From Labilithrix sp. (GTDB lineage: Bacteria; Myxococcota_A; Polyangia; Polyangiales; Polyangiaceae), in contig JBGAFW010000002.1 in NCBI GenBank assembly GCA_044227045.1, forward strand, positions 3,457 through 67,456: DNA of 64,000 bases. The letters are read 5' to 3'. Below, piece after piece: positions 5,246-64,000 of the stretch (its first letter is position 1; every line of letters begins with the position of its first letter). The notes under the pieces were generated by a model, which was given only the letters and a program-made list of their open reading frames with translations, did no database searches and had not been told where the DNA came from. The translations under genes and the position numbers were made by a program.

Positions 5246-6419
<1,174 letters not shown>

Positions 6420-6423
<4 letters not shown>

Positions 6424-6992
6424 AGGCCCCCCTTCTTCTCCTCTGACCTCGGACCGTGGGAAGAGTGTGAGGCGGGGGGGCTCGTGATGTTCGTGGCGGC
6501 GAGCTCGCTCGGCGAGCTGCTCGGGATCGAGACGCCTTCTTCGCTCTTGATCAGATCGAAGACGCTCTGGGAGTCCGCGGCGTTGATGAGGCGCGAGCGG
6601 AAGTCCTTGTTACGGAGAAGGCGCGAGACGCGGGCGAGCGTCTTGAGATGCTCGCCCGTCGCGCGTTTGGGTGTGATGACGCCGAACAGGATCGTGACGG
6701 CGGCGTCGTCGATCGCCTGAAAGTCCACGCCTTCGGGCACGATGAGCAGCGCCGCGACTTGCTCGCTGAGCTGCGGCAAGGCCCCGTGAGGGATCGCGAC
6801 GCCTTCACCAATGCCCGTGCTCTGGAGCTGCTCGCGATCGAGAAGCGCCTTCTCGATGTCCTGCACGGTGACGCCGTCACGCGTTCCAATCAGGTTCGCG
6901 AGCAGACCAATGGCCTTGGCTTTGTCGAACGGCTCACCGTTGGCGCGCTTGATGCCAACGCGCCCCGGCGAAAGTAAGTCGGTGAGACGCAT
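6420..6992 (-). CDS. ptsN: PTS IIA-Ntr nitrogen-regulatory protein
   Basis: The PTS_EIIA_2 fold is present with the phosphorylatable His region (GIGEGVAIPHG). The gene sits in the standard position between hpf and hprK. Confidence 0.8.
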
Positions 6993-7139
6993 GTTGGGGT
7001 TCGAGGTGATCAGACGAGACCTCTGATCGCGAGAGAGTCTTTGGTAGAAGTAACAGAGAGTTGAGCAGCTTCGAGCGCGCGTGGGGGAAAAACCAACCCG
7101 CCGTTCGATTCGATGGGGGCTTTCCCCGAGCCGCCGCCG

Positions 7140-7469
7140 TCACTCCTCGTCGGGGAGGAGATGATCCGAGGCGCGTTCGGCGCCTTTTTTCTTGTGCGTT
7201 CCGTGGCCGTCGCGGATTTGTCGTTCGAGCTTGTCGATGACCTTGTCGATCGTGGCGTACATGTCCTCGCTCGACTCGTGTGCGTGGTAGTGATGCCCCC
7301 CTGAGTGAAGATCCACCTCGGCCATGTGGATCGTCTTCTGACAACTCAAGGTCACCTGTCCGTGAAGTGGCTGCCTCAGGAACTTCTGTAGCTTCGAAAC
7401 CTTCTCCGTCGCGTAGCCCTTGACCGCATCGGTCGCATCCATCTGTCGGAAGGTGATGGAGATGTTCAT
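7140..7469 (-). CDS. hpf: ribosome hibernation promoting factor (sigma-54 modulation protein family)
   Basis: The motif MNISITFRQMDATDAVKGYATEKVSKLQKF is typical of HPF/RaiA. The gene lies immediately downstream of rpoN as in the canonical rpoN operon. The start was taken at the internal Met of the 151-aa ORF. Confidence 0.8.
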   Translation of the reverse strand: MNISITFRQMDATDAVKGYATEKVSKLQKFLRQPLHGQVTLSCQKTIHMAEVDLHSGGHHYHAHESSEDMYATIDKVIDKLERQIRDGHGTHKKKGAERASDHLLPDEE

Positions 7470-7791
7470 TCGTCGCTCCTTCGCTTTCTTCGCGCTTGGC
7501 CGTGTCTGGTGTGTCCGCGGGTCGTTTCCTTCGTAACCCTCGAGACGGACGATGCTTATGTGTTTCCGCGTCGCTTCGATTTGGATTCCGCACAAGCATC
7601 AAGCGTTCGGATCGATCCTCTTCTCTTTCGCTGATTTGACTTCACGTGGTTGTCTCGAAGTTTATCCCCGAAATGAGAGGAGGGTCGACAAGGTAAGACG
7701 TTTTCGGTGCGGCGCGGGGGAGGCGAGCCTCGCGACCCTCGGGCTCGGTGGTCCGGCCTTTTCGGCGTCGGGTGTTGGCACGAAGGCTCGA

Positions 7792-8418
7792 TCATCGGGT
7801 GGGTTCGCCGCCGATCGGGAAGCTCACGGGCGGTCCGGACGCCAGCGTGGCCTCGTCATCGAACGCTCGCGCTGAGAGGGGCGCCAAAAGGCGCGCCGCC
7901 ATATCGACGAGCGAGCTGTCGTTCCTGCGAACGAGCGCCGCCACTTGCGCGACGTATTCGCGCAGCTGCATGTGCGTCTCGTCGAGCGCCCGCCGAACGA
8001 GCGAGTCAGGCTCAGGCGTGCTCCCGGCGCCCGTGATGTGGAGCGCGTCGCCGTACGCGCGATGGGCGCGCCGGATCTGCGCCAAGAAGGCCGTGCCGCC
8101 GAGCTCGTCGATGAGCAGATCGTAGCCGTGCGTCGTGATCTGATCGATTCGATTCTGCGACTCGGTCCACTCGTCCTTGAAGTCGAGCGTGAGAAACTGC
8201 AGGCCCTTCGGAAAGAGGCTCGAGTAGAGGCGTCTCGTGTCGGCGACGCGCATGTGCGCTCGGTCGGGGAGCCTCGTCCAGCCGAGGAGCCAGCTCTGAA
8301 ACGCGCCCCACGCGTCGTCGAGCACTCGATCGGCGGCGCGCGCCCTCGGATCGGCGGCTGACCCCGATCGCTCGCGCGCTTGGATCGCTTGCTTGAGGCT
8401 CGCGGTCGTCTCGAGCAA
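7792..8418 (-). CDS. hypothetical protein between rpoN and hpf
   Basis: The 208-aa ORF has normal, non-Arg-biased composition. No motif was recognised and the true start may lie upstream. Confidence 0.35.
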   Translation of the reverse strand: MLETTASLKQAIQARERSGSAADPRARAADRVLDDAWGAFQSWLLGWTRLPDRAHMRVADTRRLYSSLFPKGLQFLTLDFKDEWTESQNRIDQITTHGYDLLIDELGGTAFLAQIRRAHRAYGDALHITGAGSTPEPDSLVRRALDETHMQLREYVAQVAALVRRNDSSLVDMAARLLAPLSARAFDDEATLASGPPVSFPIGGEPTR

Positions 8419-8765
8419 ACGGGCGAGGGACGCGGTCGCGCTCGAGCCGAGCTTGCCCGGCGTGCGCTGCGCCGCGGCCTCGAGCTCTTCGACGAGGGTG
8501 AGCGTCCCCGCTTCGCCAAGTGGCGGCAGTTGAATGAAATCCTGCGGGGAAAAGCTCCTCAGTTCACGCCCCCTTCGACGCGTTCCGGTTCTTGTTCGAA
8601 CCGATCATAGCCGACCCCGAAACGCACGGAAACAGCGCTGATTTTACGCCAAATTCGGCGGAAATCCGAGGGAAAGTCGCGCTCCCTCCGACCGGAAGAG
8701 CGCGCGAGTTTCATTTTTGGGGGGCGCGACTTCCTTCGGAAAGATCGCGCGATTTCCCTGTGCTC

Positions 8766-10292
8766 TCAGAAGAGCTTCTTGCGCTTCGACGACGCGAGGA
8801 TGCCCAGCATCTCGCGGTACTTCGCGACGGTGCGGCGGGCGATCTGGATGCCGTCCTGCTTGGCGAGGATCTCGACGATCGCTTGATCGCTGAGGGGGTT
8901 CTGCTTGTCCTCGCCGTCGATGATCTTCTTGATCGCCTGCTTGACGCTCTCGGAGGCGATGTCCTCCTCGGCGACGCGGCGGATCGAGCTGTTGAAGAAG
9001 TACTTCAGCTCGAAGAGGCCTTGCGGGGTGTGGACGTACTTGTTCGTCGTGACGCGCGAGATCGTCGACTCGTGCATGCCGACGGACTCGGCGACGTCGC
9101 GGAGGATCATCGGCTTCAAGAACGCGACGCCCTTCTCGAAGAACTCGCGCTGCTTCTCGACGATGCACTCGGTGACGCGGATGATCGTCTTTCGGCGCTG
9201 CTCGATCGCGCGAATGAGCCACTGCGCGTTGCGGAGCTTCTCGCCGATGAACTCTTTGGCGTTCGGATCCTTGAGGAGCTGCTTCGTCAGCGCCTCGTTG
9301 ATGTAGAGGCGCTGCACGCCGCGGTCGTTGTCGGAGACGATGAACTTGTCCGACTCCTTCACGACGTAGACGTCCGGCGTGATCGCGATCTGCTTCTCGT
9401 CGGTGTCGGTGAAGTTGCGGGCGGGGCGGCTCTCGAGCTTCTGGATCTCTTTGACGGACTCGTAGACGTCTTCGACCGGCACCTTCAGGTCGCGTGCGAT
9501 CGCCTGGTAGTTGTGCTTTTCCAGGTTGTGGAGGTGCTTGTCGAGGATCTGGATGTCGAGATCCTCGTAGCCGAACACCTCGGCCTGGACGAGGAGACAC
9601 TCGCGAAGATCGCGCGCGCACACGCCGACCGGATCGAACTCCTGCATCATCCGGAGGACCTCGGGCGCGTCCTCGGGATCGACCCCCGCTTCGTTGGCGA
9701 GCTCTTCGATCGTGAGGTCGGGCGTGCGCGTCCCGTCCGGACGCTCGACGCCTTTGAGGTCGAGGAAGCCTTGATCGTCGAGGTTACCGAGCACGAGCTC
9801 CGCGAATCGCTTCTCGGAGTCGGTCATGTCGCTCATCTGGATTTGCCAGCGGAGATGATCGACGAGCGACTCGCCCTTCGTGAGGTTCTGCTCGATCGGG
9901 GGCATCTCTTCGAAGCCGCCGCGGTTGGCAGGGAGGGGCTGTTGGAGGGTGCGGTTCTCGAGGAACTGCTCCCAGTCGATCTCGTTGACCTGCTTCGACT
10001 CCGTCTTTTGCGCTTCGCCCGACTCCATGCGCTTGCGATCGTCGAGCATGTCGATGCGACGCTCGCCTTGCTCCATGGTCGTCGTCTGGATGTTCTCGGC
10101 GGCGTTCCCCGTATCGCCAGACCGCGCACGTGGCTCGAAATCCTCGTCTGCGAGCACCGGGTTGGCGTCGCATTCCTTACGGATTTCCTCGATCAGCTCG
10201 AGCCGCGACAGCTGGAGCAGGCGGATGGCCTGCTGGAGCTGCGGGGTCATGACGAGCTGTTGGCTGAGCTTTAGCTGTTGTTTGATTTCCAT
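8766..10292 (-). CDS. rpoN: RNA polymerase sigma-54 factor
   Basis: The RpoN box ARRTVAKYRE is present, along with a Gln/Leu-rich N-terminal activator-interaction region and an HTH. Confidence 0.95.
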   Translation of the reverse strand: MEIKQQLKLSQQLVMTPQLQQAIRLLQLSRLELIEEIRKECDANPVLADEDFEPRARSGDTGNAAENIQTTTMEQGERRIDMLDDRKRMESGEAQKTESKQVNEIDWEQFLENRTLQQPLPANRGGFEEMPPIEQNLTKGESLVDHLRWQIQMSDMTDSEKRFAELVLGNLDDQGFLDLKGVERPDGTRTPDLTIEELANEAGVDPEDAPEVLRMMQEFDPVGVCARDLRECLLVQAEVFGYEDLDIQILDKHLHNLEKHNYQAIARDLKVPVEDVYESVKEIQKLESRPARNFTDTDEKQIAITPDVYVVKESDKFIVSDNDRGVQRLYINEALTKQLLKDPNAKEFIGEKLRNAQWLIRAIEQRRKTIIRVTECIVEKQREFFEKGVAFLKPMILRDVAESVGMHESTISRVTTNKYVHTPQGLFELKYFFNSSIRRVAEEDIASESVKQAIKKIIDGEDKQNPLSDQAIVEILAKQDGIQIARRTVAKYREMLGILASSKRKKLF

Positions 10293-12762: not shown

Positions 12763-15339
12763 TCATTCGGGCGGCCTTTTGAAATCAACGGACGCCTCGA
12801 GGGCACGGCCGAGCGCCTCGAGCTCGAAGGCGCGACCTTCTGCCCGCCCGCGATCGGGCGGCGCCTCGCGGGCCAAGTCGAGCAGGTGCTCGACGAGCGA
12901 CGAGATCGCGCTGCGCGTCAGCGGAAGGAGGGCGTCGGCGCGGCCATTTCCTGCCGCGAACGTGCGGACGACGGCGTGGACGATCGGCATCAGGTCGTCG
13001 ATGCGCGCCCCCGCGACGTCCGCCGTCGCTTGGCCACGCGCGATCGACGCGAGCACACGCGCGAGCGGCTGCGAGAGGCGCGAGACGGCGCGGTCGATCC
13101 GGTAGCGCACGAGCACGGGATCGTTCTCCGTCGACTGGCGATCGCGTCCGGTGACCACGACCTCGAGGTCGCGCTTCCAGTCTGCCGCGACCTGCGAGAG
13201 CGCGCCGGCCACGACCTGGGCCGCCTCGTCTGCCTCGCGCTCGAGGTTGGCCGCGCGGAGCGCGAGCTCTTGAGCACGTGCGCGGGCCGCGTCGATCGCG
13301 GCGCGCTCTTCGTTCGCGTGCTCGCGCGCGCGCTCGAGCATGAGCGCGACCACGCGTGCGGCGCGCCGGCGAAGACCACGCTCCTTGAGCTCGTCGCTTC
13401 GTCCGACGATCTGCTCGTCGAGGAGCTTTTGCACCGCGCTCCATCCCGATTTCTCGAGCGCGGCTTCGTCGCCGAGCTTTCCTTGCAGCGCGAGCCGGGC
13501 CGACAGCGACAGCGGCGCCGCCCAGGATTTGATCCCGGTCTCTTCGAGCGACTCGCCGACCGCGGTCATGACCGTGACGAGGTCCTCGGGCTTCAAGCGA
13601 TCGGCCTTGTTGACGAGGATCTGCACCGGCAGGGACGTCGCCTTCGCCTCCTCGAGGATGCGCCGCTCGGTTTGCTTCAGCGGCTGGCCGGCGTCGAGCA
13701 GCCAGATCGCCGCGTCGGCCTCCTCGAACGCCGAGCGCGCGGCCTCGGTGTGCCGCATGTCGGGCGCGTTGAAGCCTGGCGTGTCGAGGATCTCGACGCG
13801 GGTGAGCGAGGCGATCGGCTGGAGGATCTCGACGCGCTTCACGTGCGCGGCGTCGGCCGCCTTGAGCGCCTGACGAAGCTCGCTCGACGGGACGATGCGC
13901 TCCTTGACGTCGGTGGGCGCGTCGGCGTGGAACTGGATCCGCGCGAACGGATCGGGCGCGTAGCGAAGGTGATGGAGCGTGGCCGTCGTCGGCAGCACGC
14001 CGGTGGGCGCGATGTCCGCGCCGATGAGCGCGTTGATGAACGTGCTCTTGCCGGCGTTGAACTCGCCGACGATCGCGACGCGCACCGGCCGCGACCGCTC
14101 CACCGCGAGCTCGGCCACCTTCGCCGTCGCGTCGAGCGCGTGAAGCGCGCGGGCATGGCGATCGAGGCGCGTGAGCAGCTTCGTCCAGTCGCTCGGCGCG
14201 CCCGACGTGGGGATCCACGTGGCGAGCGCCGCGGCGCGTGACGCGTCGGCCCACCCACGCACCTGCGAGGAGGTGACCGCCATCAGCTCGTCGAGGATCG
14301 CCGACGCCTCTCCGGCGTCGCGAAGCCGCGCAGGCGACGGGAGACGCCGGGCGTCTTGTCCGACCGGATCGGACTCGACGAAGCCGTCGCCGAGCGCCGT
14401 CAGCGCGACGTTCAGGCCGGCGTAGTCTTGATCGTCGAGCGACGAGTCGAGCAGGGGCTTCGCCGCCGACGCGTCGCCGCTCCGAACGGCGCTCATGAGC
14501 GCGGCGCGCGCCTCATCGCGACGTCCTTCGGCGCGCGCGAACGCCGCCTTCCAGCGCGCGAGGTCCGTCTCGCCGCGGCCGTCGACGACGACGCGGATCT
14601 TGTTGCGCATCGTCTCGTCGGTCGGGATCCACGCGAGCGCAGAGGCGAGGGCCTCGCTGGCGCCCGGCGCGTCGAGCACCATCGCGCGCAAAAGGAGAGG
14701 GAAGGCCGCCGCGTCGCTCGCGATCGCGAGCGCGCGGCCGCGGAGGAGCGCGGCGCGCCCGTCGGTCGGATCGGCCTCGAGGCCGTCGAGCACCGCGCGG
14801 ACGCCCGCGATGTCGTTTTGAAGGAGGCGCGCCTCGGCGCGACGAAGCTGCACGTCGGCGTCCTTCGTCATCCCGAGCCGCTCGAGCCAAAGCTCGGCGC
14901 GCGCGCCGTCGCCGTTGGCGAGATCGAGATCGGCGAGCCAGAGGAGGGCCTCTCGTCGCGCTTCGCTCCCGGCCTCCGCCACCGCCAGCGCGCGGAGGAA
15001 CGCGTCGCGCGCCTCGTCGACCGGGCTGCCGACCCGCTCGCGCGCCCGGCCAAGGCGGACCCACACCTCGGCGCGTGACGCGACGCGGCCGGCGAGCTCC
15101 TCGAGCGTGAGCGCGAGCTCGGCGTCGAGCCGCGCGGCCTCGCACGCGTCGGCGAGGAGCGCGAGGCCGAGCGGCGAATGCGGCACGCGCTGGAGCATCG
15201 CCTTCGCGGCCTGGCGCGCGCGCATCGCGTCGCCACGCGCGAGCGCCTCTTCGCCTTCACGGAGGTAGCCCTCGACGCCCGCGAGGACCACCTCGACCCG
15301 CCCGAACCAACCCGCAATCGTCTCGGCGAGGCGCGACAT
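12763..15339 (-). CDS. bacterial dynamin-like GTPase with N-terminal TPR-like region
   Basis: G1 (GEFNAGKSTFINALIG), G3 (DTPGFN) and G4 (NKAD) motifs are present. The N-terminal region of about 400 aa is TPR-like and Ala/Leu-rich helical. Confidence 0.75.
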   Translation of the reverse strand: MSRLAETIAGWFGRVEVVLAGVEGYLREGEEALARGDAMRARQAAKAMLQRVPHSPLGLALLADACEAARLDAELALTLEELAGRVASRAEVWVRLGRARERVGSPVDEARDAFLRALAVAEAGSEARREALLWLADLDLANGDGARAELWLERLGMTKDADVQLRRAEARLLQNDIAGVRAVLDGLEADPTDGRAALLRGRALAIASDAAAFPLLLRAMVLDAPGASEALASALAWIPTDETMRNKIRVVVDGRGETDLARWKAAFARAEGRRDEARAALMSAVRSGDASAAKPLLDSSLDDQDYAGLNVALTALGDGFVESDPVGQDARRLPSPARLRDAGEASAILDELMAVTSSQVRGWADASRAAALATWIPTSGAPSDWTKLLTRLDRHARALHALDATAKVAELAVERSRPVRVAIVGEFNAGKSTFINALIGADIAPTGVLPTTATLHHLRYAPDPFARIQFHADAPTDVKERIVPSSELRQALKAADAAHVKRVEILQPIASLTRVEILDTPGFNAPDMRHTEAARSAFEEADAAIWLLDAGQPLKQTERRILEEAKATSLPVQILVNKADRLKPEDLVTVMTAVGESLEETGIKSWAAPLSLSARLALQGKLGDEAALEKSGWSAVQKLLDEQIVGRSDELKERGLRRRAARVVALMLERAREHANEERAAIDAARARAQELALRAANLEREADEAAQVVAGALSQVAADWKRDLEVVVTGRDRQSTENDPVLVRYRIDRAVSRLSQPLARVLASIARGQATADVAGARIDDLMPIVHAVVRTFAAGNGRADALLPLTRSAISSLVEHLLDLAREAPPDRGRAEGRAFELEALGRALEASVDFKRPPE

Positions 15340-23798: not shown

Positions 23799-24021
23799 GG
23801 AGCGTTACCTAGGGTCTGCCCAGTACTTAGCGCAATTCTCGCGTCGCGTTAGGAGACCGCGCGGGGAACCCAAAAGCGACATCATGCCGCACAAGACACC
23901 TGAACAAGCCCGTTTTCGTTTGCCTTTGCCGAGAGGGGTCTGGAGCGGCTGGCCAGCGGTCGATTCAAGGGTTAAATAGAGCTGTGCGCCGTCCTGGAGG
24001 GCTTGCGCGAGACCCGAAGCA

Positions 24022-24038
24022 CTGTTAATGTGTTCAGT
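24022..24038 (+). promoter_or_regulatory. LexA box (myxobacterial CTRHAMRYBYGTTCAGS type) abutting imuA start codon
   Basis: CTGTTAATGTGTTCAGT matches 15 of 17 positions of the published Myxococcus LexA consensus. It ends 1 nt before the imuA ATG at 24039. Confidence 0.6.
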
Positions 24039-24851
24039 ATGTCGGCGCTCGCTTCTCTGCCCCTCGATCGGACCGAGCTTGCGCGGTTGGGCGTGCTCGA
24101 AGGCACCGAAGCGCTCCTGCCGGCGCGATCCGTCCTTCGATTGGACTGGCCCGAGCTCGAGCAAGCGTTGCCCGATCACGGATTGCCTCGTGGCGTGATC
24201 GAGATCGCGGCGATGCCGCGCGTCGCGAGCACACGCTCACCGGTCGACGCGCGTCGCAAGCCGTACCCCGAGTCGATGCGTGGTGGCTCCACCTCGATCG
24301 CGATCGCCGCGATGAGCGCCACGCATGCCGCCGACGATCAGGCGTGGTGCGCATGGATCACGCCCGACGCGCCGTCCACGCGCACGCAGACGGGCGCGTC
24401 GATCACGCCGTCTCTTTATGCACCCGCGCTCGCGAAGGCAGGCGTTGATCTCGATCGCCTCCTCGTCCTTCGCCCGCCGGTCCAAGCGCTCGCGCGGACG
24501 GTCGTGAAGGCCGCGGCTTCGGGAGCCTTTGCGTTGATCGTCATCGACGCTCCCGACAATCAGGTGTGGGGGCGAAGCAGCGCGCCCCACCAGCACGTAG
24601 GAGGCAAGAACGTCGACGGAGGCTCCAGAAATGAGGGCGGCGCGCTCGTCGTTCGAAAGCTCGCGCTCGCCGCAGAGGAGTCGGGCACCACCTCGCTCCT
24701 CCTCACGAACGCGCTCTCGCCGCGCGGCGCGCCATGGCCGGTCGCTCTTCGTCTCGAGGTCGAGCGCCGTCCCGACTCGCTCTCGCTTCGTGTCACCAAA
24801 GATCGACGAGGCGCGGGCTCTTCCCAGCACGTCGTTCGGCTCGCGGGTTGA
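24039..24851 (+). CDS. imuA: ImuA (RecA-fold, SulA-like) translesion mutasome protein
   Basis: This is a small RecA-like protein (FALIVIDAP Walker-B-like region) lying first in an imuA-imuB-dnaE2 gene order and preceded by a LexA box. Confidence 0.65.
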   Translation: MSALASLPLDRTELARLGVLEGTEALLPARSVLRLDWPELEQALPDHGLPRGVIEIAAMPRVASTRSPVDARRKPYPESMRGGSTSIAIAAMSATHAADDQAWCAWITPDAPSTRTQTGASITPSLYAPALAKAGVDLDRLLVLRPPVQALARTVVKAAASGAFALIVIDAPDNQVWGRSSAPHQHVGGKNVDGGSRNEGGALVVRKLALAAEESGTTSLLLTNALSPRGAPWPVALRLEVERRPDSLSLRVTKDRRGAGSSQHVVRLAG

Positions 24852-24859
24852 GGAGGCTC

Positions 24860-26916
24860 ACGTGCGTATCTGCGCGATCAGCCTGCCGGAGCTTCGCATC
24901 GAGCTCGTTCGTCACGAGATGGAGCAAGCGCGTCGAAAGAAGCAGAGAGAGGAGCACCTCCCATCGTCGGGCCCATCGTTGAACCAAGAGCAGCAGGCCC
25001 TTCCGCTCGACTTCGACGAAGACGACGACCGCGAAGGCCAAGACGAGGTCGAGCCCCCGCCACCTCCCATCGCCGTCGTGGTGGCGCCGGCGCCGATGAC
25101 GGAGACGAAGCTCCTCGGCAACACACGCCTGTCGGTCGTCTCGCGCGAAGCCCGCGCGCTCGGGGTCCTGCCCGGCCACACCATCGCGCAAGCGCGCGCG
25201 CGCGCGGGAGATCTCGCCGTGCGCGTCGTCCGCCCGGAGGCCGTGCGTGACGTGCTCGCGCGCATCGCCGAGGTGGGCCTCGCGTTTGGCGCCACCGTCT
25301 CCTTCGACATGACGGGCAGCGACGTGCTGCTCGCCGCCGCCACGTCGAAGAAGCGAGGAGGTCGCGCGGCAGGAGCCGGCGCGCTTCCCGAGCCTCAGGC
25401 CGGCGGCTCGGGGCAATACGGCGACGTCGTCTGGATCGACATCACCGGCTGCGCGCACCTTCACGCTCCTGCGCCGGGCGCGCACGAGCCGCGCCCGAGC
25501 CTGTTCGACGGAGAGACGATCTTGGCGTCGCGCCTCGCGGGCGTCATCGCGTCGCTCGGTCACACGTGCTCGGTCGCGATCGCCGACGGGCCCCGCATCG
25601 CGGCGATGCTCGCGCGCGCGTCCGCCGAGACCGCTGCGCGCGCCGCGGTGATGCGTGGAAGCCGAAGCAAGCCCGGCCTGCTCCTCCTCGAGCCCACCGT
25701 CGTCAAGCCCGGGGAAAACGCGGCGGCGATCGCGTCGCTGCCCGTGTCGATGTTGCCCATTCCTTCCGAAGACGTGCGGTGGCTCACGAAGATCGGCGTC
25801 CGCACGATCCAAGAGCTGAGGCAGCTCCCGCGCGAGGGCTTGGGCACGCGCCTCGGAGCACGTGCGCGCGAGGTGATCTCGCTTGCGTACGGCGAAGATC
25901 GCGCGCCGCTCACGTCGTATGTGCCCCCGGAGGTCCCGGTCGAAGAGGCGCAGCTCGAATACGGCATCGAAGGAACGCAGGCGCTCACGTTCGTCGCGAA
26001 GACGCTCACCGATCGCCTCGCGGCGCGCCTTCAAGGGCGCGCGGTGGCCGCGGCGCGCGTCGAGCTCGAGCTCAAGCTCGACGCCGCGATGTTGCGTGAT
26101 CGCGAGCACGATCGCACGCCCGCGCGGCGAAGGGACGTCGAAGGTCCGCCCAGCGCGCCCATGCGCTCTGTCACGATGGGAACCAGTGCCAGGTTCCCAA
26201 ACCCTCCCGCTGCCACGATGGGAACCAGTGCCAGGTTCCCAAACCCTCCCGCTGTCACGATGGGAACCAGTGCCAGGTCTGCGACCGTCCTCGTCGCGCT
26301 CGATCTGCCGGTGCCGCTCTCGCTCGCAAGCGATCTCCTGGCGGCGCTTCGTCCGAAGATCGAGCGCCTCGTCCTCGAGGCGCCCGTGCTCAGCGCGAGC
26401 CTTCGCGCGCCCGTGCTCGTTCAAAAACGCGCGGCGGCGCTCTCGCTCTTCGAGCCGCAGCCCAAAGCCGAGCGCGCGCTTCCGCGTCTCGTCGCCGAGC
26501 TCGTCTCGGACTTGGGCTCCCATGCCGTGTCGAAGCTCGTGCTCGGGGATAGCTGGGTGCCGGAGGAGCGTTCGAGGCTCGTCCCGTTTCACCACCCCGA
26601 CGTGCGCGCGCGTGCGTCGGCTTCGGAGATCACGCAGAGAGAGAAGAAGCAAACGCGCTTCTTGCTCTCGAGCGTGCCCGAGCCCACGCGCCTGCTCGTC
26701 GAGCCGCGCCCTGTCACGCGCGAGAACGTTCGTGTCACGCGCCACCTCACGCGCGTCGAAGCGCTCGAGTGGTGGAAGTCGATCCCCTCGGCGGAGGAGC
26801 CCTCGGCGCGGAGGCGCCCTGTCGATTATGTCGAGGCGTGGATTGACGACGGCGCGGCTTGGGTAGAGATCGATCGCGCGACCGGCGCGATGCGCGTGCT
26901 CGGTCTGTTCGATTGA
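24860..26916 (+). CDS. imuB: ImuB (inactive Y-family polymerase-like) mutasome protein
   Basis: GGAGG precedes a GTG start. The N-terminus resembles ImuB (ICAISLPELRIELV), a Y-family palm/fingers-like region follows, and the gene sits between imuA and dnaE2. It contains an in-frame 42-bp tandem palindromic insert. Confidence 0.7.
26172..26290 (+). repeat. 42-bp tandem repeat (2.6 copies) containing palindrome GGGAACCAGTGCCAGGTTCCC, in-frame inside imuB
   Basis: The period is exactly 42 bp: cacgatgggaaccagtgccaggttcccaaaccctcccgctgc. It encodes MGTSARFPNPPAAT ×2 plus a truncated third copy. Confidence 0.85.
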
Positions 26917-27032
26917 GATCGAGACCGAGGACGAGCGATAGAGACCTTGCCCGATAGAGACCTTGCCCGATCGCGGTTCGTTCTGCCTGTTGCAAAGCTG
27001 TTCGTAGCGTATTTCACGATGAGGCCCCCACG

Positions 27033-30536
<3,504 letters not shown>

Positions 30537-30722
30537 GGGCCATGTGTCCCTGCAGGGATAGCGCCCCCCTTAATGCAGCGCAAACACAAGCCAGCCGTGC
30601 GTCGTCGTCCCTTCGGATGACGCGTGGGATTTGAATCCGTCGACTCTAGAAACGAGACAGGACTTTCCCTACGTTCGCCATGCTGGGGGAAGAGACCGAT
30701 GACGATGAGAGAGGAGGGGCGC

Positions 30723-33278
30723 ATGACCGAACGAGAGCGCACACGGGAACGCGATCTGGTGCTCGCACCGAACGAGTACGCATTCATCTCCGACGAGACG
30801 AAGGGCAACATCAACGCCTACGTCGGCCCGCACAAGACGAGCTTGGCGAACACCGATCAGCCCGTCGTCTTCAACCCGAGCTCGAAGCGCTTCGAGCGCG
30901 TGACGCTCGAGGAGGCGATCCATAGCTTCGCGGTCGCGCCGGTCGGTTGGTACATCCTGCTGAAGAACCCGGCGAAGGACGGCACGCATCCGAAGACGGG
31001 CGCGATCAACAACCTCGCCGAGCTCGAGGTCGGCCGAAAGCGAAACCTCGCCGGGCCGGTGTCGTTCGCGCTCTGGCCGGGGCAGATGGTGCGCATCATC
31101 CAGGGCCACCACCTCCGCTCGAATCAGTACTTGATCGTCCGCGTCTACGACGAGGACTCCGCCAAGGCGAACTGGAACAACGCCGTCATCAAGCCGCAGG
31201 TCGGCGGCGGGGCGACCGAAGGTGAGCCCGCGACGAGCGAGCCGAGCGGCGGCGGTGCCGGCGCTGGCGGCGGAGCGGGCGCAGGCCCGACGCTCGAGCG
31301 GCCGGACCTCACGATGGGCAAGCTGCTCATCATCAAGGGCACGGACGTGTCGTTCTACATTCCGCCCACCGGCATCGAGGTCGTGCCCGACGTCTCGGGC
31401 GTGTACGTGCGCGAGGCCGTCACGCTCGAGCGGCTCGAGTACTGCATCTTGCTCGACGAGGACGGCGAGAAGACGTTCCTCCGCGGGCCGGCCGTCGTCT
31501 TTCCGCGTCCCACGCAGACGTTCGTCGAGCGCGACAGCGCGCGGAAATTCCGCGCGATCGAGCTGAACGAGAACAGCGGCATCTACTTGAAGGTGATCGC
31601 GCCGTACGTCGAAGACGACGGCACGCAGCGCAAGGTCGGTGACGAGCTCTTCATCACCGGCAAAGAGCAGATGATCTACTTCCCGCGGCCCGAGCACGCG
31701 GCGATCAAGTACGGCAACCAGGCGATCCACTACGCGGTGGCGATCCCGGCAGGCGAGGCGCGCTACGTCCTCGACCGTCACTCCGGGACGATCCGGCTCG
31801 AGCGCGGCCCGCGCATCTTCTTGCCGGATCCGCGGCGTGAGGTGATCGTCCGGCGCGTCCTCGACCGCCGTCAGGTCGAGCAGTGGTTCCCCGGCAACGC
31901 CGACGCGATCAAGCACAACGAGCGCCTCGCGCAGATGCGTGAGACCGAAGGGCGCGACTACGTCCCGGAGCGCGACGCGCGCGCGGTGGCCCCTGCGGCC
32001 GCGTCGCCCGAGCAGGCCGTGTCGCGGACGGGGACGGGCGCGTTCGCCGGCGACGACTTCAACCGCAAGCAGAACTTCACCCAGCCGCGGTCGATCACGA
32101 TCGACACGCGCTACGACGGCGCGGTCTCGATCGCGCCGCACACGGGCTACGCCGTGCAGGTGGTGAGCAAGACGGGAGACCGCAAGGTCGTCGTCGGCCC
32201 CGCCACCTACCTCCTCGAGTACGACGAGACGCTCCAGGCGATGGACCTGTCGTCCGGCACGCCGAAGACCGACGACAAGCTCCAGCGTACCGTCTACTTG
32301 CGTGTACTCTACAACAAGGTCTCGGACATCGTCGAAGCCGAGACGGCCGACCTCGTCACGATCCGCATCCGGCTCTCGTACCGCGTGAACTTCGAGGGGG
32401 ATCCGAACCTGTGGTTCAACGTCGAGAACTACGTGAAGTTCCTCACCGAGCATCTGCGGTCGCTCATCCGCGCCGCGGTGAAGACGTACCGCGTGCAGGA
32501 TCTCCATCCGCGCGCCGTCCCGGTCGTGCGCGACGTCGTGCTCGGCCAGTCGGTCGAGGGGAGCAAGCGGCCCGGTCGCCTCTTCGCCGAGAACGGCATG
32601 CGCGTCTACGACGTCGAGGTGCTCGACGTCGAGATCGGCGACGCCGACATCGCGAAGCTCCTCGTCCAAGCGCAGCACGCCGCGGTCGAGCAGACGCTCA
32701 CGCTCGGCGCGGAGCGACGCCGGCTCGAGCTCGTTCGCGAGAAGGAGACGATCGAGCTCGAGGTGCAGCAGATCCTCGCGACCACGGGGCGGAAGCGCGC
32801 CGAGGTCGAGATGGCGGGGATCCAGGACAAACGCGAGGTCGAGCTCTCGCGCATCGCCGCCACGGCGGCGGCGACGAAGGAGAAGCTCGCGGCGCAGTGC
32901 GCGGAGCAAGAGGCGCTCGACACCGTCAACAACGCCGAGATCGGACGAAGGCGCGCGATGAAGAGCGCCGAGACCGACGCGGCGGAGAAGGACCTCGCGC
33001 TCCGTCTCCGCGCCCTCGAGGCCGACGTCCACGCCGTCAGCGAGAAGGCGAAGGCCGTGTCGCCTGACCTCATCGCGGCGCTCCAGGCGTTCGGTGACCG
33101 CGCGCTCGCCGAGAAGATGGCCGAGACGATGGCCCCGCTCGCGATCCTCGGCGGCGACAGCGTGAGCGACGTGCTCGCGCGCCTCCTCAAGGGGACGAAG
33201 CTCGCGAAGGTCCTCGCCGAGGTCACCCCGAGCGAGAACGGCCACACCCCGCCACGCACCCTCCCGCCCGCGGAGTGA
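30723..33278 (+). CDS. major vault protein (MVP) homolog, full length (~850 aa)
   Basis: Colinear similarity to eukaryotic MVP was recognised by eye. The N-terminal vault-repeat pattern is present ([36 protein letters not shown] versus human [37 protein letters not shown]). The shoulder domain matches ([21 protein letters not shown] versus [41 protein letters not shown] versus [20 protein letters not shown]). A long C-terminal coiled-coil cap-helix is present. An RBS-like GAGGAGG precedes the ATG at 30723. Confidence 0.8.
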   Translation: [851 protein letters not shown]

Positions 33279-33442
33279 CGAGCGTGTGACATGCGAACGA
33301 GCCAGATGACGCGGGCGAAGGAAGAGCCTTCGCGAGGCGCTGACAGGCGTATCGTGAAATAAAAGCTCCTCCAGATGCATGGCGTTTGAGGCGGCCCCGG
33401 GCATCTCGCGCTACGATAGAGGTAGCGAATTTGGGCGCGAGC

Positions 33443-34465
33443 ATGCCGGCAACACCGCTCCGTGATGCGCAGAGGACCCTCGAGATCCTCCTGCAGCTCA
33501 CGGCGCAGCTCACCGACGACCGCCCGCTCGAAGACTTCTTGAAGGCGGTCACCGACGCGTCGCTCGAGATGCTCACCGCCGAGCACGCGAGCATTCGTCT
33601 GCTCGATACGTCGCGATCGATGTTGCTGTCGGGATCGCGCTCGGGCGTCGGTGAGACCGGACGCCCGATGGACTTTCGGCGGGGGGAGGGCGTGCTCGGG
33701 TGGGTGGTCGAGCACGGCCAGCCGGTCCGCATCGACGATGTCGAGAAGGACCACCGCTGGGTGCCTGGCAAGACGCAGGGGTTCGAGGTGCGTTCGATCA
33801 TGGCCGAGCCGCTGTGGTCGAGCGGGGAGGTGATCGGCGTGCTCGCGATCACCTCGGCGAGCGATCACGCGTTCACCGAGGACGATCAGCTCATGCTGCG
33901 GCTGCTCGCGAACTGTTCGGCGCCGCCGATCGAGCGTGCACGACTCCGCCGGCTCGCGATGTTCGACGACATCACGATGGCCTTCAACCATCGATACCTC
34001 ACGCCTCGCATGGTCGAGGAGATGGAGCGCGCGAGCCGCGCCGGCGGAGACGTCAGCATCCTTTACATGGACCTCGATCACTTCAAATCGGTGAACGACA
34101 AGTTCGGTCACGCCGTCGGCGACAGCGTGCTCCGCATGTTCGCCGATCGCGTGCGCAAGGCGGTGCGGCGGGTCGACGTCCTCATCCGGCGAGGCGGCGA
34201 AGAGTTCGTCCTCGTCATGCCGCAGACCGGCGCGACGCAGGCGCACGCCACCGCGATGCGCATCCAACACACGCTCGCAGGCGAGGAGATGGAGCTCGAA
34301 GGCGGCCTCCGCATTCGGCAGACGGTGTCGATCGGCGTCGCGACGTGGGACCAGCGCGAGTCGCCCGAGCAGCTCGAGCGGCGCGCCGACGACGCGATGT
34401 ACGAAGCGAAGCGGCTCGGTCGAAACCGCGTCGTCGTCGCCACGCCGCGTGAGGTCAAAGGCTGA
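33443..34465 (+). CDS. GAF-GGDEF diguanylate cyclase (GGEEF motif)
   Basis: A GAF domain (GVLGWVVEHGQPVRIDDVEKDHRW) is followed by GGDEF hallmarks (YMDLDHFKSVNDKFGH, RRGGEEFVL, YEAKRLGRNRV). Confidence 0.8.
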   Translation: MPATPLRDAQRTLEILLQLTAQLTDDRPLEDFLKAVTDASLEMLTAEHASIRLLDTSRSMLLSGSRSGVGETGRPMDFRRGEGVLGWVVEHGQPVRIDDVEKDHRWVPGKTQGFEVRSIMAEPLWSSGEVIGVLAITSASDHAFTEDDQLMLRLLANCSAPPIERARLRRLAMFDDITMAFNHRYLTPRMVEEMERASRAGGDVSILYMDLDHFKSVNDKFGHAVGDSVLRMFADRVRKAVRRVDVLIRRGGEEFVLVMPQTGATQAHATAMRIQHTLAGEEMELEGGLRIRQTVSIGVATWDQRESPEQLERRADDAMYEAKRLGRNRVVVATPREVKG

Positions 34466-34793
34466 GCTGGTCGCGCTCGCCGTGGGTCGACCCGCGCCGC
34501 GTCCGTGTAGGTTGCACCTATCGGCACGCGCGAAGAGTAGGAGGACAAATCAGGGTTCACCCCATGAACGGCCGTTCGTTCTGCGGCCCTTCGCTCACGG
34601 GGGCTGTGCTCACGGCCGTTCACAGCGTCTCGGCTTCGCCGTGCTCGCGTGCGTCGCGACGCCTTCCCCGGGCCTGGTTTCGGGGCTACTAACCAAATCG
34701 AGATAGGCGACCTCCGAGTCCTTGCACCGCTGCGTGGAGGGGTGCGAACCTTGCTTCGTCTCTCTTGCGGGCGAGCCCGCGAACCCAAACCCG

Positions 34794-36470
<1,677 letters not shown>

Positions 36471-36514: not shown

Positions 36515-39373
36515 ATGCCCATGCTGCTGCGTGTCCCTTTCTCTCGCTTTGCCGTGTCGCGAGCGCGCGTCCCCGTCCTCATCGCGCTCGCGACGGCCTT
36601 CTTCGACTGCGCCTCGCTCGAGCCCATCGCGCAAGGCACGTGTGGAAATGGCGTCGTCGACTCACAGGCGGAGGACTGCGACTCCTTCCCGAGCACGTGC
36701 GGCAAGGCAACGGACGGCCTCAAGGCATGCCGGCTCACTTGCGATCGCAAGCAGGCGAGCTCATGCCCCGTCGGCTGGGGATGCAGCGTGGACGGCTTCT
36801 GCCGCGAGGCGACCGGCAACATCCAGAACGCAGGCGCGCCGCTCTCGGCGGGCGCTGCGGCGCTCATCACCGGTGACTTCGACGGCGACGGACGCGTCGA
36901 CATCATCGGCGCTCCACCGTACTCGAGCGGCGGCGGCTCTCGCGTCCACTACTTCGACAACGACGCGAACCTCGCGACCTCGTCCGCGCTGTCGGTCCCG
37001 ATCCGCATCCCCGTCATCAAAGACTTCACCCGTGACGGGATCGACGACGTCGGCTTCTCGGCGAACATCGTCAACGTCGGAGGCTTCGCCGCGATGGCGG
37101 GCCGCGGTGACCGCACGTTCTCGCCGATCCTGTTCCCCGCGATCACGCTCGAGAAGGTGGCCGCCGTGCCCACCACGCTGAGCGCCATCACGGACCGCAC
37201 GTTCTTGCCCGGGTTCAACCGCTCGTGCGTCGTCGCGGTGATCCAGACGGAGAAGGGCAGCCGCCTCCACAGCTATTGCGGCGACGAGCTCACCGGTACG
37301 GAAGACCTCGACCTCGCGTCGAGCGCGAACCCCGCGACCATCGTCGGGACGCCGAAGACCGCGATCGTGTTCGATCAGTTCCCGATCAACGTCGCCACCT
37401 CCGTCTGCGGTGAGGTCATCACCGCTCACAACGAAGGCAACCAGGGCAAGCTCACGATCGTGTCGCCTTGCGAGGTCGTCAACGACTCCGGGTCGCTGAC
37501 GGTGCGCTGGATCAAGGACATCGGGTCGGCGAAGAAGACGGTCGAGGTGACGACGCCGGGCAAGCTCGTCGAGGCGCCCTTCGCTGGCGACCTCACCGAC
37601 GACGGCTACGCCGACATCGTGATTCACACGGAGAGCGGCTACTACCTCGCGAAGAGCACGCACACGGGCCTGACGAGCTGGGAGACGTTCACGTACTACA
37701 AGGTCCCGTTCCAGGAGGTCCCGCTCGCCGCGGCGGATCTGAACAAGGACGGCGCGGCGGACATCGTGTTCCCCTCGGGCGTCCTCTTCACGAAGCTCTC
37801 GGTCAGCACCGACGGCGGTCCCGTCACGGTCGACGGCGTCGACACGTCGCTCAGCTTGCCCTCGCGTGACGGCCAGCGTTGGGCCGACGCGCGCATCGGC
37901 AATTTCAACGGCGACGACATCCCGGACGTGCTCGTCTTCTACGAGGGATCCCTCGACGCGGAGCTCCTCACGAGCTCGGGCAGGGGGCTCTTCACCACCT
38001 TCGTCGTTCGATCCGATCAAGCCGTGCGCGCGATCGTCGACGGTGACTTCGACGGCGACCTCATCCAAGACATCGCGTTCTTGCAGTCGCCGCGCGCGCT
38101 CGACGATCCGAACGGCGCGGGCGAGATCGAGCTCGCGCTCGCGTATGGAAGGACATCCGGTGGGCCCGAGACACCGAAGGTCGTCGGGCGCTTTACGAAT
38201 GCACGCGCGGTCACCGCGCTTCACGATCCGCAGTCGTCGGTCGACAGCATCGCCGTGATGGAGACGATCAAGAGCGCGCAAGCGGCGACGCTGCCGACGA
38301 CGGCGATCACGGTCTTGTTCGGATCGGGCGGGCGCCAAGTGATCGCGCCGCTCTTCATGCGCGATGACGACGCCAAGCCGCCGTACGATCAGAAAGGCGT
38401 CAATCGTCGCGGAAAGACGCGCGTGTGGGCTCCGGCCGTGCTCGCCGCCGGCGCGATCCAAGCGCCGAACACGATCGATCTGATGTCGATCGCGACCGGC
38501 ATCACGATCGACTACTCGACCCAGCCGGTGAAGCTCTTGCCGCCGTTTCCGACCGGCGTCTGGGTCGCTCCGCACAACGACACGGCCGCGGGAGGGATCG
38601 GCAGCTTCTCGGAGGTGCAGCGCATCACCGACCTCTTCGGTGCGGTCGGCGCCCGAGACAGCCAGCCCGACACGCTCGAGTCGGTCATCGTCGCGACGAT
38701 CGGCGACATCGACGTGCCCAAGAACGGCCTCGACGAGGTGATCACCATCGCGCGCTTGCCGGCGGACGCGACGTCGTCGGGCGTGTACATCGTGCGACCC
38801 GGGGCTGGCGGCGAGCAAGCCGCGAAGCTGACCACGACGCTGGCCGGCGTGCGGATCAGAGGCGGCGATCCCGTCGACCTCGTCGACGTGAACGGTGACG
38901 GCGCGCCCGATCTCGTCGCGCTCACCACCGTGGCGAACAAGCGGAGCGTCATCGTCCTCTTGAACGACGGGAAGGGGAGCTTCAGCGCGTCGCCCGCGAC
39001 CGTCGAGCTGCCGCCGCCGGCGTCGAGCTCGCCGACCTCTTCGGACGATCCGCTCGGCGTCGCGCACATCATCACTGGCGCGACGCCTGGCAGCGACTTT
39101 CCACAGCGCCAGCTCGTCATCGTCACGGATAAGCGCCTCTTCCTGGCGCAGATCAAGGCCGATGGCGCGTCGTTCGACGTGCGCGAAGAGACCGCACGCT
39201 TGGTCACCGACGCGAAGGTCGCCGGCGCGCAGCCGGGCCAGGCATCGGCCACAGGGACCATTCGAATGACCGCGGTGGCGGGAGGCGACTTCGACGGCGA
39301 CGGCGTGCAGGACATCGCCGTCGCCGACTCGGGATCAATCCGCATCCTTCGCCAGGCGCCGAGGCTCAAATGA
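36515..39373 (+). CDS. secreted FG-GAP (integrin-alpha-like) repeat protein with N-terminal Cys-rich module, 952 aa
   Basis: A signal peptide and a Cys-rich EGF-like N-terminus are followed by at least six FG-GAP or Ca-binding-like repeats (GDFDGDGRVDIIG, ADLNKDGAADIVF, GNFNGDDIPDVLV, GDFDGDLIQDIAF, VDVNGDGAPDLVAL, GGDFDGDGVQDIAVAD). Confidence 0.8.
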   Translation: MPMLLRVPFSRFAVSRARVPVLIALATAFFDCASLEPIAQGTCGNGVVDSQAEDCDSFPSTCGKATDGLKACRLTCDRKQASSCPVGWGCSVDGFCREATGNIQNAGAPLSAGAAALITGDFDGDGRVDIIGAPPYSSGGGSRVHYFDNDANLATSSALSVPIRIPVIKDFTRDGIDDVGFSANIVNVGGFAAMAGRGDRTFSPILFPAITLEKVAAVPTTLSAITDRTFLPGFNRSCVVAVIQTEKGSRLHSYCGDELTGTEDLDLASSANPATIVGTPKTAIVFDQFPINVATSVCGEVITAHNEGNQGKLTIVSPCEVVNDSGSLTVRWIKDIGSAKKTVEVTTPGKLVEAPFAGDLTDDGYADIVIHTESGYYLAKSTHTGLTSWETFTYYKVPFQEVPLAAADLNKDGAADIVFPSGVLFTKLSVSTDGGPVTVDGVDTSLSLPSRDGQRWADARIGNFNGDDIPDVLVFYEGSLDAELLTSSGRGLFTTFVVRSDQAVRAIVDGDFDGDLIQDIAFLQSPRALDDPNGAGEIELALAYGRTSGGPETPKVVGRFTNARAVTALHDPQSSVDSIAVMETIKSAQAATLPTTAITVLFGSGGRQVIAPLFMRDDDAKPPYDQKGVNRRGKTRVWAPAVLAAGAIQAPNTIDLMSIATGITIDYSTQPVKLLPPFPTGVWVAPHNDTAAGGIGSFSEVQRITDLFGAVGARDSQPDTLESVIVATIGDIDVPKNGLDEVITIARLPADATSSGVYIVRPGAGGEQAAKLTTTLAGVRIRGGDPVDLVDVNGDGAPDLVALTTVANKRSVIVLLNDGKGSFSASPATVELPPPASSSPTSSDDPLGVAHIITGATPGSDFPQRQLVIVTDKRLFLAQIKADGASFDVREETARLVTDAKVAGAQPGQASATGTIRMTAVAGGDFDGDGVQDIAVADSGSIRILRQAPRLK

Positions 39374-40692
39374 CGACGATGATCTCCGAGGGGCTACGCC
39401 GTCTCGTTCGAACCCGTGCGTGGTACGCAAACGCTCGCGCGCTCGGCGTCGCGCTCGTCCTCGTGAGCGCGGGCGCTGCCGCGGACGCGCAGGCGGCGGC
39501 CCCGAACGCCACACCGAGCGCCGAAGACGTCGAGCGTGCGCGCACGTTCTTCAACGCTGGCGCACAAGCTTACGGCGCGGCGAAGTACGCCGACGCGGTG
39601 CGCTCGTTCGAGCAAGCGTACGAGCTGTCGCCGCGACCTCCGGTGCTCTTCTCGCTCGCGCAAGCGGAGCGAAAGGAATACTTCGACCACGGTGATGCTC
39701 GCGTCTTGAAGCGCGCGATCCAGCACTACAAGGACTACCTCGATCAGGTCACAACCGGCGGCCGGCGCGCCGAGGCGCTCGACGCGAAGATCGAGCTCGA
39801 GCAGCGCCTCTCGAGGCTCGATCCGTCGCAGGCGAACGTCTCGTCGGCGCCGAGCGAGAAGCGCAAGCCACGCGTGACGGTGTTCTCGCCGACGCAAGGC
39901 GCGCAGGCGTCGCTCGATGGTGGTCCGCCGCAGGACCTGCCGTACTTCGCCGACCTCGGACCCGGCAAGCATCGCGTTCGGGTCTTTGGCGAAGGCTACA
40001 TCGACGCGGAGCAAGAGATCTCCGGTGACAAGGGCATCGACGTGCCGGTGAACCTCCCGTTGAAGGAGAAGCCTGCGCTCGTGACCGTCGCGCTCGACTC
40101 TTCGGCGGACGTGTTCGTCGACGGACGGCTCGTCGCTACGACGCCGTCGAGTCAGCCGATCGAGGTGCCGCCAGGTCCTCACGTCATCGCGATCGCGAAG
40201 AACGGCAAGCAGTCGTGGTCGCAAGAGGTCTCGCTGACGCGTGGAAAGCCGTTTCGCGTCGAGCCAAGGCTCACGACGAGCGGCCAGCGCTACCTCGCAT
40301 ACACGATGCTCGGCGCTGGCGTGGTGTCGCTCGCGCTCGGCGGCGGCTTTGCGATCGGAGCGGCGGCGAACGAGAGCCGCGCGAAAGATCTCGAGACCAA
40401 ACGAGAGACGCAGAACCTCACCCCGAAGGAGCTCGACGACCACAACCGCTCGATCGAGCGGCGCGACGACCAACGCACCGCCTCGATCGTGCTCGCGTCG
40501 GCGGGCGCGGTGATCACCGCGGGCGGCGTCCTCTTCTACTTCTTCGATAAGCCGCCGGTCGCGCTCGTGCCTCCGCGGTCGGTCGAGCCAGGACCGAAGC
40601 CGCAGACGCCCGTCGACGTCACGGCGACGCTCCGGCCGTTCCCGGTGGTCGGGCCTGGCCTCTACGGCGCGGGCGTCGCCGCTCGGTTCTAA
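39370..40692 (+). CDS. TPR-like / tandem PEGA domain membrane protein
   Basis: The gene overlaps the upstream stop as ATGA. A signal or TM region precedes a TPR-like helical region, two PEGA-like segments (KHRVRVFGEGYIDAEQEI; PHVIAIAKNGKQSWSQEVSL) and a C-terminal TM segment. Confidence 0.7.
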   Translation: MTTMISEGLRRLVRTRAWYANARALGVALVLVSAGAAADAQAAAPNATPSAEDVERARTFFNAGAQAYGAAKYADAVRSFEQAYELSPRPPVLFSLAQAERKEYFDHGDARVLKRAIQHYKDYLDQVTTGGRRAEALDAKIELEQRLSRLDPSQANVSSAPSEKRKPRVTVFSPTQGAQASLDGGPPQDLPYFADLGPGKHRVRVFGEGYIDAEQEISGDKGIDVPVNLPLKEKPALVTVALDSSADVFVDGRLVATTPSSQPIEVPPGPHVIAIAKNGKQSWSQEVSLTRGKPFRVEPRLTTSGQRYLAYTMLGAGVVSLALGGGFAIGAAANESRAKDLETKRETQNLTPKELDDHNRSIERRDDQRTASIVLASAGAVITAGGVLFYFFDKPPVALVPPRSVEPGPKPQTPVDVTATLRPFPVVGPGLYGAGVAARF

Positions 40693-59065: not shown

Positions 59066-59716
59066 TTACTTCTTGAAGTCCCACGCGCAGCAGACGATGC
59101 CGCCCGTGAGAGGGATGCGGAGATGCAAGCCGCCGCCGAGCATGAAGAGGCCGGCGTCGGACGGCAGGTGTTGGTAGCCCGCCTCGGCCCACGCCCCGAG
59201 CGCGAGCGCGCCGAACGCGACGCCGAAGTAGAAGCCTTTGTGATCCGCGGTCGCGACGGGCTCACCGTCCGCCGTCCCGAACACCTCGACCGACGCGCGT
59301 ACGAGGCCGGCGTACGCGAGGTTCGGACCTTGCGGAGCGAAGTAGTACTCGGCGCGCGGCCCGACGAACGTGCGCCAGTTCTTCCCGCCCGCGACGCGCG
59401 GCCCGCCTTCGAGGTAGAGGCCGTGCACCGGGATGTGATGGTCGTGCGCTTCGCTCCCGGTCTGCACGTAGCCCGCGCCGACGTCGAGCGGGAAGTCGGG
59501 GTTCGGGATCAAGCTCGCGACGTGCGTGCCGACGTCGAACGTGTACCCCGCGTTGCTTCCTGGCCGAACCTCACCGCCGCCGCTGATCTTCATCGGCGGC
59601 GTGATGAGCGGAAAGCACCCCGACGTGAACGCCGCGCTGGCGAGCAGGGTGAGGAGAGAAAACGGAGGACGAGGCGGCGAAGACGAAGAAGGGGGAGGAG
59701 TGGTCGCCGGCCTCAC
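59066..59716 (-). CDS. putative small lipoprotein (β-rich), GTG start overlapping lepA stop
   Basis: A hydrophobic segment with a lipobox-like FTSGC is followed by a non-Arg-biased roughly 190-aa domain. The start codon is uncertain. Confidence 0.35.
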
Positions 59717-61533: not shown

Positions 61534-61672
61534 CGGGATGTCGGCGCGAGCGCCTGACCGTGGAGAGCTGACCGTGAGGCTCGTTCTGGCCGACGTGAGG
61601 AGGAGCGTCTACTCCATAGTCGACCGTGCGCTTGGCCAAAAGGTCTCCGCACGGCAGCGGAGGAACGGTTGA

Positions 61673-63971: not shown

Positions 63972-64000
63972 GCGCGCGTCAGCGCTTCTTCGCCTTCGCT

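Follow-up and report, generated by a model that had tools for sequence, protein, structure and literature searches.

A homologue of the major vault protein encoded in a chromosomal region of Labilithrix sp.

Described vault proteins and the Labilithrix homologue

The question of what vaults do has gone unanswered since 1986. The eukaryotic major vault protein (MVP; rat/human, PDB 4V60, 4HL8, 9BW5 and 9R86) consists, in this order, of repeats, the repeat R9, an SPFH shoulder, a cap-helix and a cap-ring; the repeat boundaries of the rat protein reportedly come from work by Tanaka et al. in 2009. The same order was found in an 851-amino acid (aa) protein of Labilithrix sp., encoded on the plus strand at 30723..33278 (stop codon included) of a 64,000-nucleotide (nt) stretch of contig JBGAFW010000002.1. 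This whole stretch is called the window, and all nucleotide coordinates, unless stated otherwise, are those of the window. Sequence and predicted fold, as independent lines of evidence, give strong support to its assignment to the MVP family. Eukaryotic MVP was its best whole-chain structural match, and the two share blocks in R9 and the shoulder, including an S-x-G-x-P-K loop.

Bacterial relatives of MVP have been described before: Daly et al. (2013; PMC3762200) reported proteins of Plesiocystis, Corallococcus, Microscilla, Saprospira, Flexibacter and Herpetosiphon with approximately 25% identity to eukaryotic MVP, and predicted, in silico only, the docking of related bacterial proteins. Sokolskyi (2019; 10.1101/872010) analysed the Enhygromyxa salina homologue and others and noted a correlation with gliding motility, and a 2023 preprint (10.1101/2023.11.10.566534) reported MVPs in gut Caudoviricetes phages. 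The novelty claimed when the window was first annotated is therefore superseded by these three sources, while the description of such genes as essentially uncharacterised stands: no experimental study of a bacterial vault was found in the literature searched. The named bacterial MVP-like proteins (Plesiocystis pacifica A6FXM1/A6FXE2; Enhygromyxa salina A0A0C2D5V5, 'Shoulder domain protein') belong to the same class of approximately 800-850 aa and carry the same Pfam signature (Vault_3 and MVP_shoulder, sometimes with Band_7). The window protein differs from them only in detail, for example in a Gly/Ala-rich insert at aa 161-192.

The family proved to be large. A protein search (E≤1e-3) returned 6543 clusters at 90% identity; the best 120 relatives were 60-78% identical to the window protein, approximately 820 aa long and mostly from Myxococcota, and many of them are named 'major vault protein' by JGI. 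Metagenomic proteins under this JGI name reached 78-80% identity. The closest match was approximately 80% identical, and the exact window sequence was absent from the searched collection. In an exhaustive search of representatives, 764, 1245 and 1641 clusters at 50% identity were obtained at E≤1e-30, E≤1e-10 and E≤1e-3, respectively. A restrictive two-peptide scan, with one genome counted per species, gave at least 288 carrier genomes. The initial annotation had called bacterial MVP genes very rare, which these cluster counts and the spread of the carriers over many phyla contradict.

Identity, conservation and synteny figures for 80 loci refer to the top 80 of the 288 carrier genomes. These 80 were 55-70% identical to the window protein and came from Myxococcota, Chloroflexota, Sericytochromatia, Riflebacteria, Desulfobacterales, Cytophagales, Vulcanimicrobiota and others; the Plesiocystis pacifica SIR-1 and Enhygromyxa salina loci were 64-67% identical over aa 5-851, and those of Cytophagales 55-56%. 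Among the 80 loci, lineages with a filamentous, gliding or multicellular habit (Nannocystis, Polyangia, Desulfonema, Anaerolineae, Cytophagales, Moduliflexus, Sericytochromatia) seemed over-represented, an impression and not a statistic, which recalls the correlation with gliding motility noted by Sokolskyi (2019). Homologues 42-48% identical to the window protein were also seen in the huge-phage sequences LR756500.1 (20952-23390 of that sequence), LR756501.1 and LR756503.1 (17692-19599); the MVP-bearing genomes LR756500 to LR756503, of 462 kb and 735 kb, are metagenomic and unannotated. Like the gut Caudoviricetes proteins, these phage homologues belong to the same family and are of similar length, but they lie on phage genomes, whereas the window gene lies in a core chromosomal context. 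The window protein thus adds a member to a bacterial family that is already known, widespread and uncharacterised by experiment.

Gene, family membership and predicted fold

The coding sequence was delimited from the open reading frame (ORF) translation, Pfam matches, the start and length of homologues and the GC content at third codon positions (GC3). The 851-aa translation contains no internal stops. The mechanically called ORF opens upstream, at GTG 30624; M1 and a 12-residue N-terminal motif, read from the ATG at 30723, are conserved across 30 relatives, and 30723 was therefore taken as the start. The start and length of the protein agree with those of the homologues in two alignments (30 and 117 sequences). 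The ribosome-binding site reported at first was recovered as GGAGG (30713..30717, plus strand), read from the sequence 5 nt before the ATG. Scans for sigma-70 and sigma-54 promoters and for terminators around the gene gave no recognisable signal, the downstream spacer folded no better than shuffled sequences, and no second MVP copy was detected in the window by tblastn.

A 911-aa ORF spans the whole gene on the minus strand (30669..33404), and it could in principle be the real gene, the plus-strand frame being fortuitous. The long open frame is present as such; its GC content at first, second and third codon positions is 92/44/68%, against 68/43/93% for the MVP frame, so that its first-position value (92%) mirrors the plus-frame GC3 (93%), as is expected of non-coding antisense sequence in high-GC DNA. 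The GC3 of the MVP gene is in line with that of neighbouring genes (86-88%), and all homology evidence falls in the plus frame. The antisense ORF was rejected as a mirror-frame artefact of high GC content, and the probability that it is the real gene is negligible.

The MVP coding sequence was compared with Pfam. MVP_shoulder (PF11978) matched aa 530-640 with E=1.9e-26 and 92.9 bits (cut-off 25), and Vault_3 matched aa 477-521 with E=3.3e-7 and 30.8 bits (cut-off 28.8); Vault itself (aa 281-322, E=1.8e-5) fell slightly under its cut-off. The Band_7 match was weak, and MVP_shoulder scored far higher. Both MVP_shoulder and Vault_3 were matched in all of the 30 close relatives.

Profiles built from relatives reached the eukaryotic proteins directly: rat and human MVP were matched at E=5e-23 with the profile of 30 relatives and at E=1.8e-40 with that of 117 diverse relatives. 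The latter gave three matched stretches, whose order is that of rat MVP: query 13-51 with rat 10-47 (weak), query 235-357 with rat 294-409 (i-E 0.02) and query profile positions 466-791 with rat 457-815 (1e-32). Profile-profile comparison by hhalign with aligned eukaryotic MVP fragments yielded a probability of 99.94% and E=2.9e-37 over 511 aligned columns (aa 220-822, 23% identity), reaching through the cap-ring region. The eukaryotic alignment, obtained by a protein search seeded with rat MVP 459-808, consisted of fragments of at most 613 aa. The hhalign test therefore spans R6 to the cap ring and not R1-R5, so that the assignment of R1-R5 rests on structural matches. The two blocks quoted in the initial annotation were found at aa 539-559 and 621-640, and their alignment with rat MVP was exactly as it had been given.

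Two AlphaFold (AF2) models were compared with the PDB using Foldseek. The first, made with 30 close homologues, had a predicted local distance difference test score (pLDDT) of 51, with values below 50 in the N-terminus, and was confident for the shoulder and the helix only; its best Foldseek matches were nevertheless MVP chains. The second, made with the 117-sequence alignment, had a mean pLDDT of 83.2 and a predicted template modelling (TM) score of 0.63, with a pLDDT above 90 in the repeat region. Its top 12 matches were full-length MVP chains of rabbit, human and rat (E=6.6e-34 to 2e-26; 875-955 alignment columns; TM up to 0.48-0.55). Crystal structures of murine MVP R1-R7 were matched at E of about 2e-15 (TMt 0.51-0.53).

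The SPFH cages (HflK/C, flotillin, prohibitin, stomatin, erlin), in which, as in the window protein, the SPFH fold is followed by a long helix, one that closes a dome in those assemblies, appeared as secondary matches at about E=1e-6 only. An alternative reading, one that the initial annotation had itself named as contrary to its claim, is that the protein is a scaffold of the SPFH, flotillin or HflK type with an unrelated N-terminus, and forms a membrane-attached ring instead of a vault-type shell. This is very improbable: the N-terminal 380 or so residues match the MVP R1-R7 crystal structures, the Foldseek E-values of full-length MVP chains are lower than those of SPFH proteins by over 25 orders of magnitude, and MVP_shoulder is far above Band_7 in score. 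Approximately 520 residues of beta-repeats and linker precede the SPFH domain. The SPFH cages are membrane-anchored and have no beta-repeat wall, whereas the window protein has such a wall and neither a transmembrane nor a hairpin anchor. No hydrophobic segment was found along the protein (maximum of 1.15 in a 19-residue Kyte-Doolittle window), and it is therefore predicted to be soluble.

Taken with the profile and hhalign results, the predicted fold upholds a full-length MVP homologue, colinear with MVP from the first repeat to the cap region. From the first repeats to the end of the cap-helix, the predicted fold agrees with that of solved vault chains; the cap-ring segment is matched at the profile level.

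Domain anatomy and the keyhole loop

The protein begins with an N-terminal array of vault-type beta-repeats (30750..31862, aa ~10-380), estimated at approximately six to seven modules, or seven or eight in all when the R9-like repeat is included. Modules of approximately 53 aa are supported by an internal repeat with an offset of 107 aa (aa 198-270 against 305-377). Within the array lies a Gly/Ala-rich, disordered, low-complexity insert (31203..31298, aa 161-192), recognised by its composition, a pLDDT below 50 and 8% column conservation in the 80 loci; this insert is lineage-specific. Residue 233 of the window protein aligns with rat residue ~275, and approximately 35 preceding residues are disordered.

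The array is followed by a helical insertion of three helices (aa 382-422) and a variable, disordered linker (aa 423-470; 40% conservation), together at 31866..32132, which were placed from DSSP, pLDDT and the hhalign register and occupy the position of the long R8 region of rat MVP. Next come the R9-like vault repeat (32133..32309, aa 471-529), which matches Vault_3 and aligns with rat 457-519, and the SPFH-like MVP shoulder (32310..32642, aa 530-640), which was identified by PF11978, has a pLDDT of approximately 97 and has SPFH structures as secondary fold matches.

The cap-helix region (32643..33152) was assigned from DSSP of the model and alignment with the rat cap-helix (647-815): a single long helix (aa 641-776) is followed by helices at aa 782-810. 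Sequence conservation in the cap-helix is merely 36%, as is expected of a coiled coil. A C-terminal segment (33063..33221, aa 781-833) is 70% conserved and aligned by hhalign with the eukaryotic cap-ring region, the alignment reaching aa 822 against the eukaryotic block GPEMQVKLLQ.LGLKS.LITDG. All these features lie on the plus strand.

Human MVP binds NAD+/ADP-ribose behind a 'keyhole loop', with R504, K506, R507, P508, H509, R511 and others (PMC12280208). The equivalent of this loop in the window protein was located by the 117-sequence alignment and the rat alignment as a 10-residue loop (32247..32276, plus strand, aa 509-518). Just 27 columns of the 117-sequence alignment are invariant, those of S510 and K515 among them, and G512 and P514 are conserved in at least 90% of it. 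These four residues align with rat S501/G503/P505/K506, and the bacterial core reads LS-x-G-x-PK. From this conservation, binding of a small nucleotide by the bacterial loop is possible and unproven.

Origin and genomic setting

MVP is best known from eukaryotes, and for some of the bacterial homologues Daly et al. (2013; PMC3762200) brought up transfer from eukaryote to bacterium. One alternative is that the gene was recently acquired from a eukaryote by horizontal transfer, or that the assembly contains eukaryotic contamination. Over R9 and the shoulder, identity of the window protein is 24-28% with eukaryotic MVPs and 36-86% with bacterial representatives; more widely, it is 17-28% with eukaryotic MVP and 55-80% with bacterial relatives. 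The bacterial and eukaryotic groups separated cleanly in a neighbour-joining tree, and the bacterial clade was the deeper one, with a eukaryotic sample that is biased towards metazoans; the bacterial clade holds hundreds of clusters at 50% identity. Both the GC3 and the overall GC content of the MVP gene match those of the flanking core genes, and the gene is embedded among bacterial genes on a contig with rpoN and lepA. Because of the clean separation of the clades and the flank-like composition, recent transfer from a eukaryote or contamination is very unlikely indeed, and is given almost no weight.

The window belongs to the core chromosome, as is indicated by rpoN (8766-10292), an HPr kinase gene, a gene for an 858-aa protein with a dynamin-family GTPase domain (bacterial dynamin-like; 12763-15339, minus strand) and lepA (59713-61533); rpoN, the HPr kinase gene and lepA bear out the chromosomal location first assigned to the MVP gene. 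GC content is 0.63-0.65 at 6001-10000 and 60001-64000, against approximately 0.68 elsewhere in the window. The AT skew has strongly negative values at 6-10 kb and changes from -0.12 to +0.21 within 60-64 kb. With the core genes rpoN and lepA located there, the GC dips probably reflect gene content and not foreign DNA.

Upstream of the MVP gene lie an ImuB-like gene (24631-26916, plus strand; weak IMS match, E=5.7e-6) and a DnaE2 gene (27033-30536, plus strand; Pol III alpha domains), which form a mutasome-type cassette at 24003-30536 (plus strand). An ORF of 282 aa (24003-24851) directly upstream of the ImuB-like gene has no Pfam match and could encode an ImuA-like component. Downstream lie genes for a GAF-GGDEF protein (33386-34465), a Ser/Thr kinase (34722-36470, plus strand), an FG-GAP protein (36515-39373) and a PEGA protein (39370-40692). 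The kinase matched PADLOC PD-T4-6 models at E of about 1e-83; as the myxobacterial genome is rich in kinases, this most probably reflects general similarity of kinase domains and not a defence system.

The neighbours are thus as initially described, an SOS mutasome on one side and a c-di-GMP/kinase cluster on the other, but no specific neighbour recurs beside MVP in the 80 loci. ImuB, DnaE2, GGDEF, FG-GAP and PEGA were found beside MVP in none of the 80. Generic Ser/Thr kinases alone recur near MVP (18/80 loci by tblastn, 17/80 by clustering), and de novo all-against-all clustering of the flanking ORFs gave no family in more than 17 of the 80 loci; the recurring flanking families were kinases, hybrid histidine kinases or cases of lineage-local synteny. 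An Rfam scan of the 64-kb window returned no family, and so neither vault RNA nor Y RNA. Unlike in the eukaryotic vault particle, no vPARP (PARP4), TEP1 or vault RNA partner was detected in the local context of the bacterial gene. With no conserved neighbour and no RNA, the MVP gene is stand-alone, as judged from its local context and the 80 loci. Its placement between mutasome and signalling genes is incidental and carries no functional information.

The distribution of the family raises a further alternative, in which the gene derives from a mobile element or phage and encodes a defence or counter-defence shell in phage-host conflict, as opposed to a housekeeping compartment. The homologues in the huge-phage genomes LR756500 to LR756503 and the reported gut-phage MVPs (10.1101/2023.11.10.566534) are in its favour, the patchy cross-phylum distribution with high identity suggests horizontal spread, and the eukaryotic vault has lately been linked to immunity through an NADase. 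At the Labilithrix locus, however, PADLOC and PHROGs gave no match to the MVP protein, the gene adjoins no phage, integrase or defence genes, its composition is the same as that of its flanks, and the PD-T4-6 matches of the flanking kinase reflect generic kinase-domain similarity. A phage-conflict role is unlikely.

A possible shell and its meaning

The architecture runs from a beta-repeat array to an R9-like repeat, an SPFH-type shoulder, a cap-helix of approximately 135-170 residues and a cap-ring-like tail. By analogy with MVP and other SPFH-family proteins, many copies would pack side by side via the repeats and the shoulder, and the long helices would bundle into a closed cap, as in those systems. 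The product would be a large, hollow cytoplasmic structure, either a dome or a cage of two halves. If such a shell forms, it would be built by the MVP-family protein alone, with no conserved partner gene, vault RNA, vPARP or TEP1 analogue nearby.

Several points weigh against this interpretation. The protein shares only 17-28% identity with eukaryotic MVP. Searched with phmmer against the PDB as a single sequence, it gave no match, MVP included; this miss is attributed to limited sensitivity, since the family profiles later matched MVP at 5e-23 and 1.8e-40. The protein probably has fewer than the nine repeats of rat MVP, by approximately one, as estimated from the alignment with rat MVP and the disordered residues before aa 233. 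The disordered inserts (aa 161-192 and 423-470) could change the size or symmetry of a particle, or assembly could fail. Confidence of the model in the cap-helix is moderate (pLDDT 60-78). Most residues of the NAD+ pocket differ: the equivalents of R504, R507, H509, R511, W545 and K573 are not conserved. Formation of a cage, finally, is plausible from homology only.

As a whole, the findings are best explained by a soluble, cytoplasmic member of the bacterial MVP clade that we infer to pack into a hollow dome or cage, and this explanation is regarded as likely. A wider proposal is held more tentatively, at slightly less than even confidence: that the whole clade builds vault-like hollow particles in the bacterial cytoplasm, with a shell made of a single protein that might sequester a nucleotide via the S-x-G-x-P-K loop.

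The locus bears out the presence in a myxobacterium of an MVP homologue that is intact and strongly conserved, and the same holds for thousands of catalogued homologues. Three corrections are of use: the family is widespread across phyla and occurs in huge phages, the gene stands alone, and only the core of the NAD+ loop is common with human MVP. This copy is not a discovery; it adds a usable example, one with no informative gene context, and is a candidate for testing whether bacteria build vaults. If the clade does so, vaults would have arisen in bacteria and have been inherited or acquired by eukaryotes later. As simple systems open to genetics, the bacterial relatives give access to vault function.

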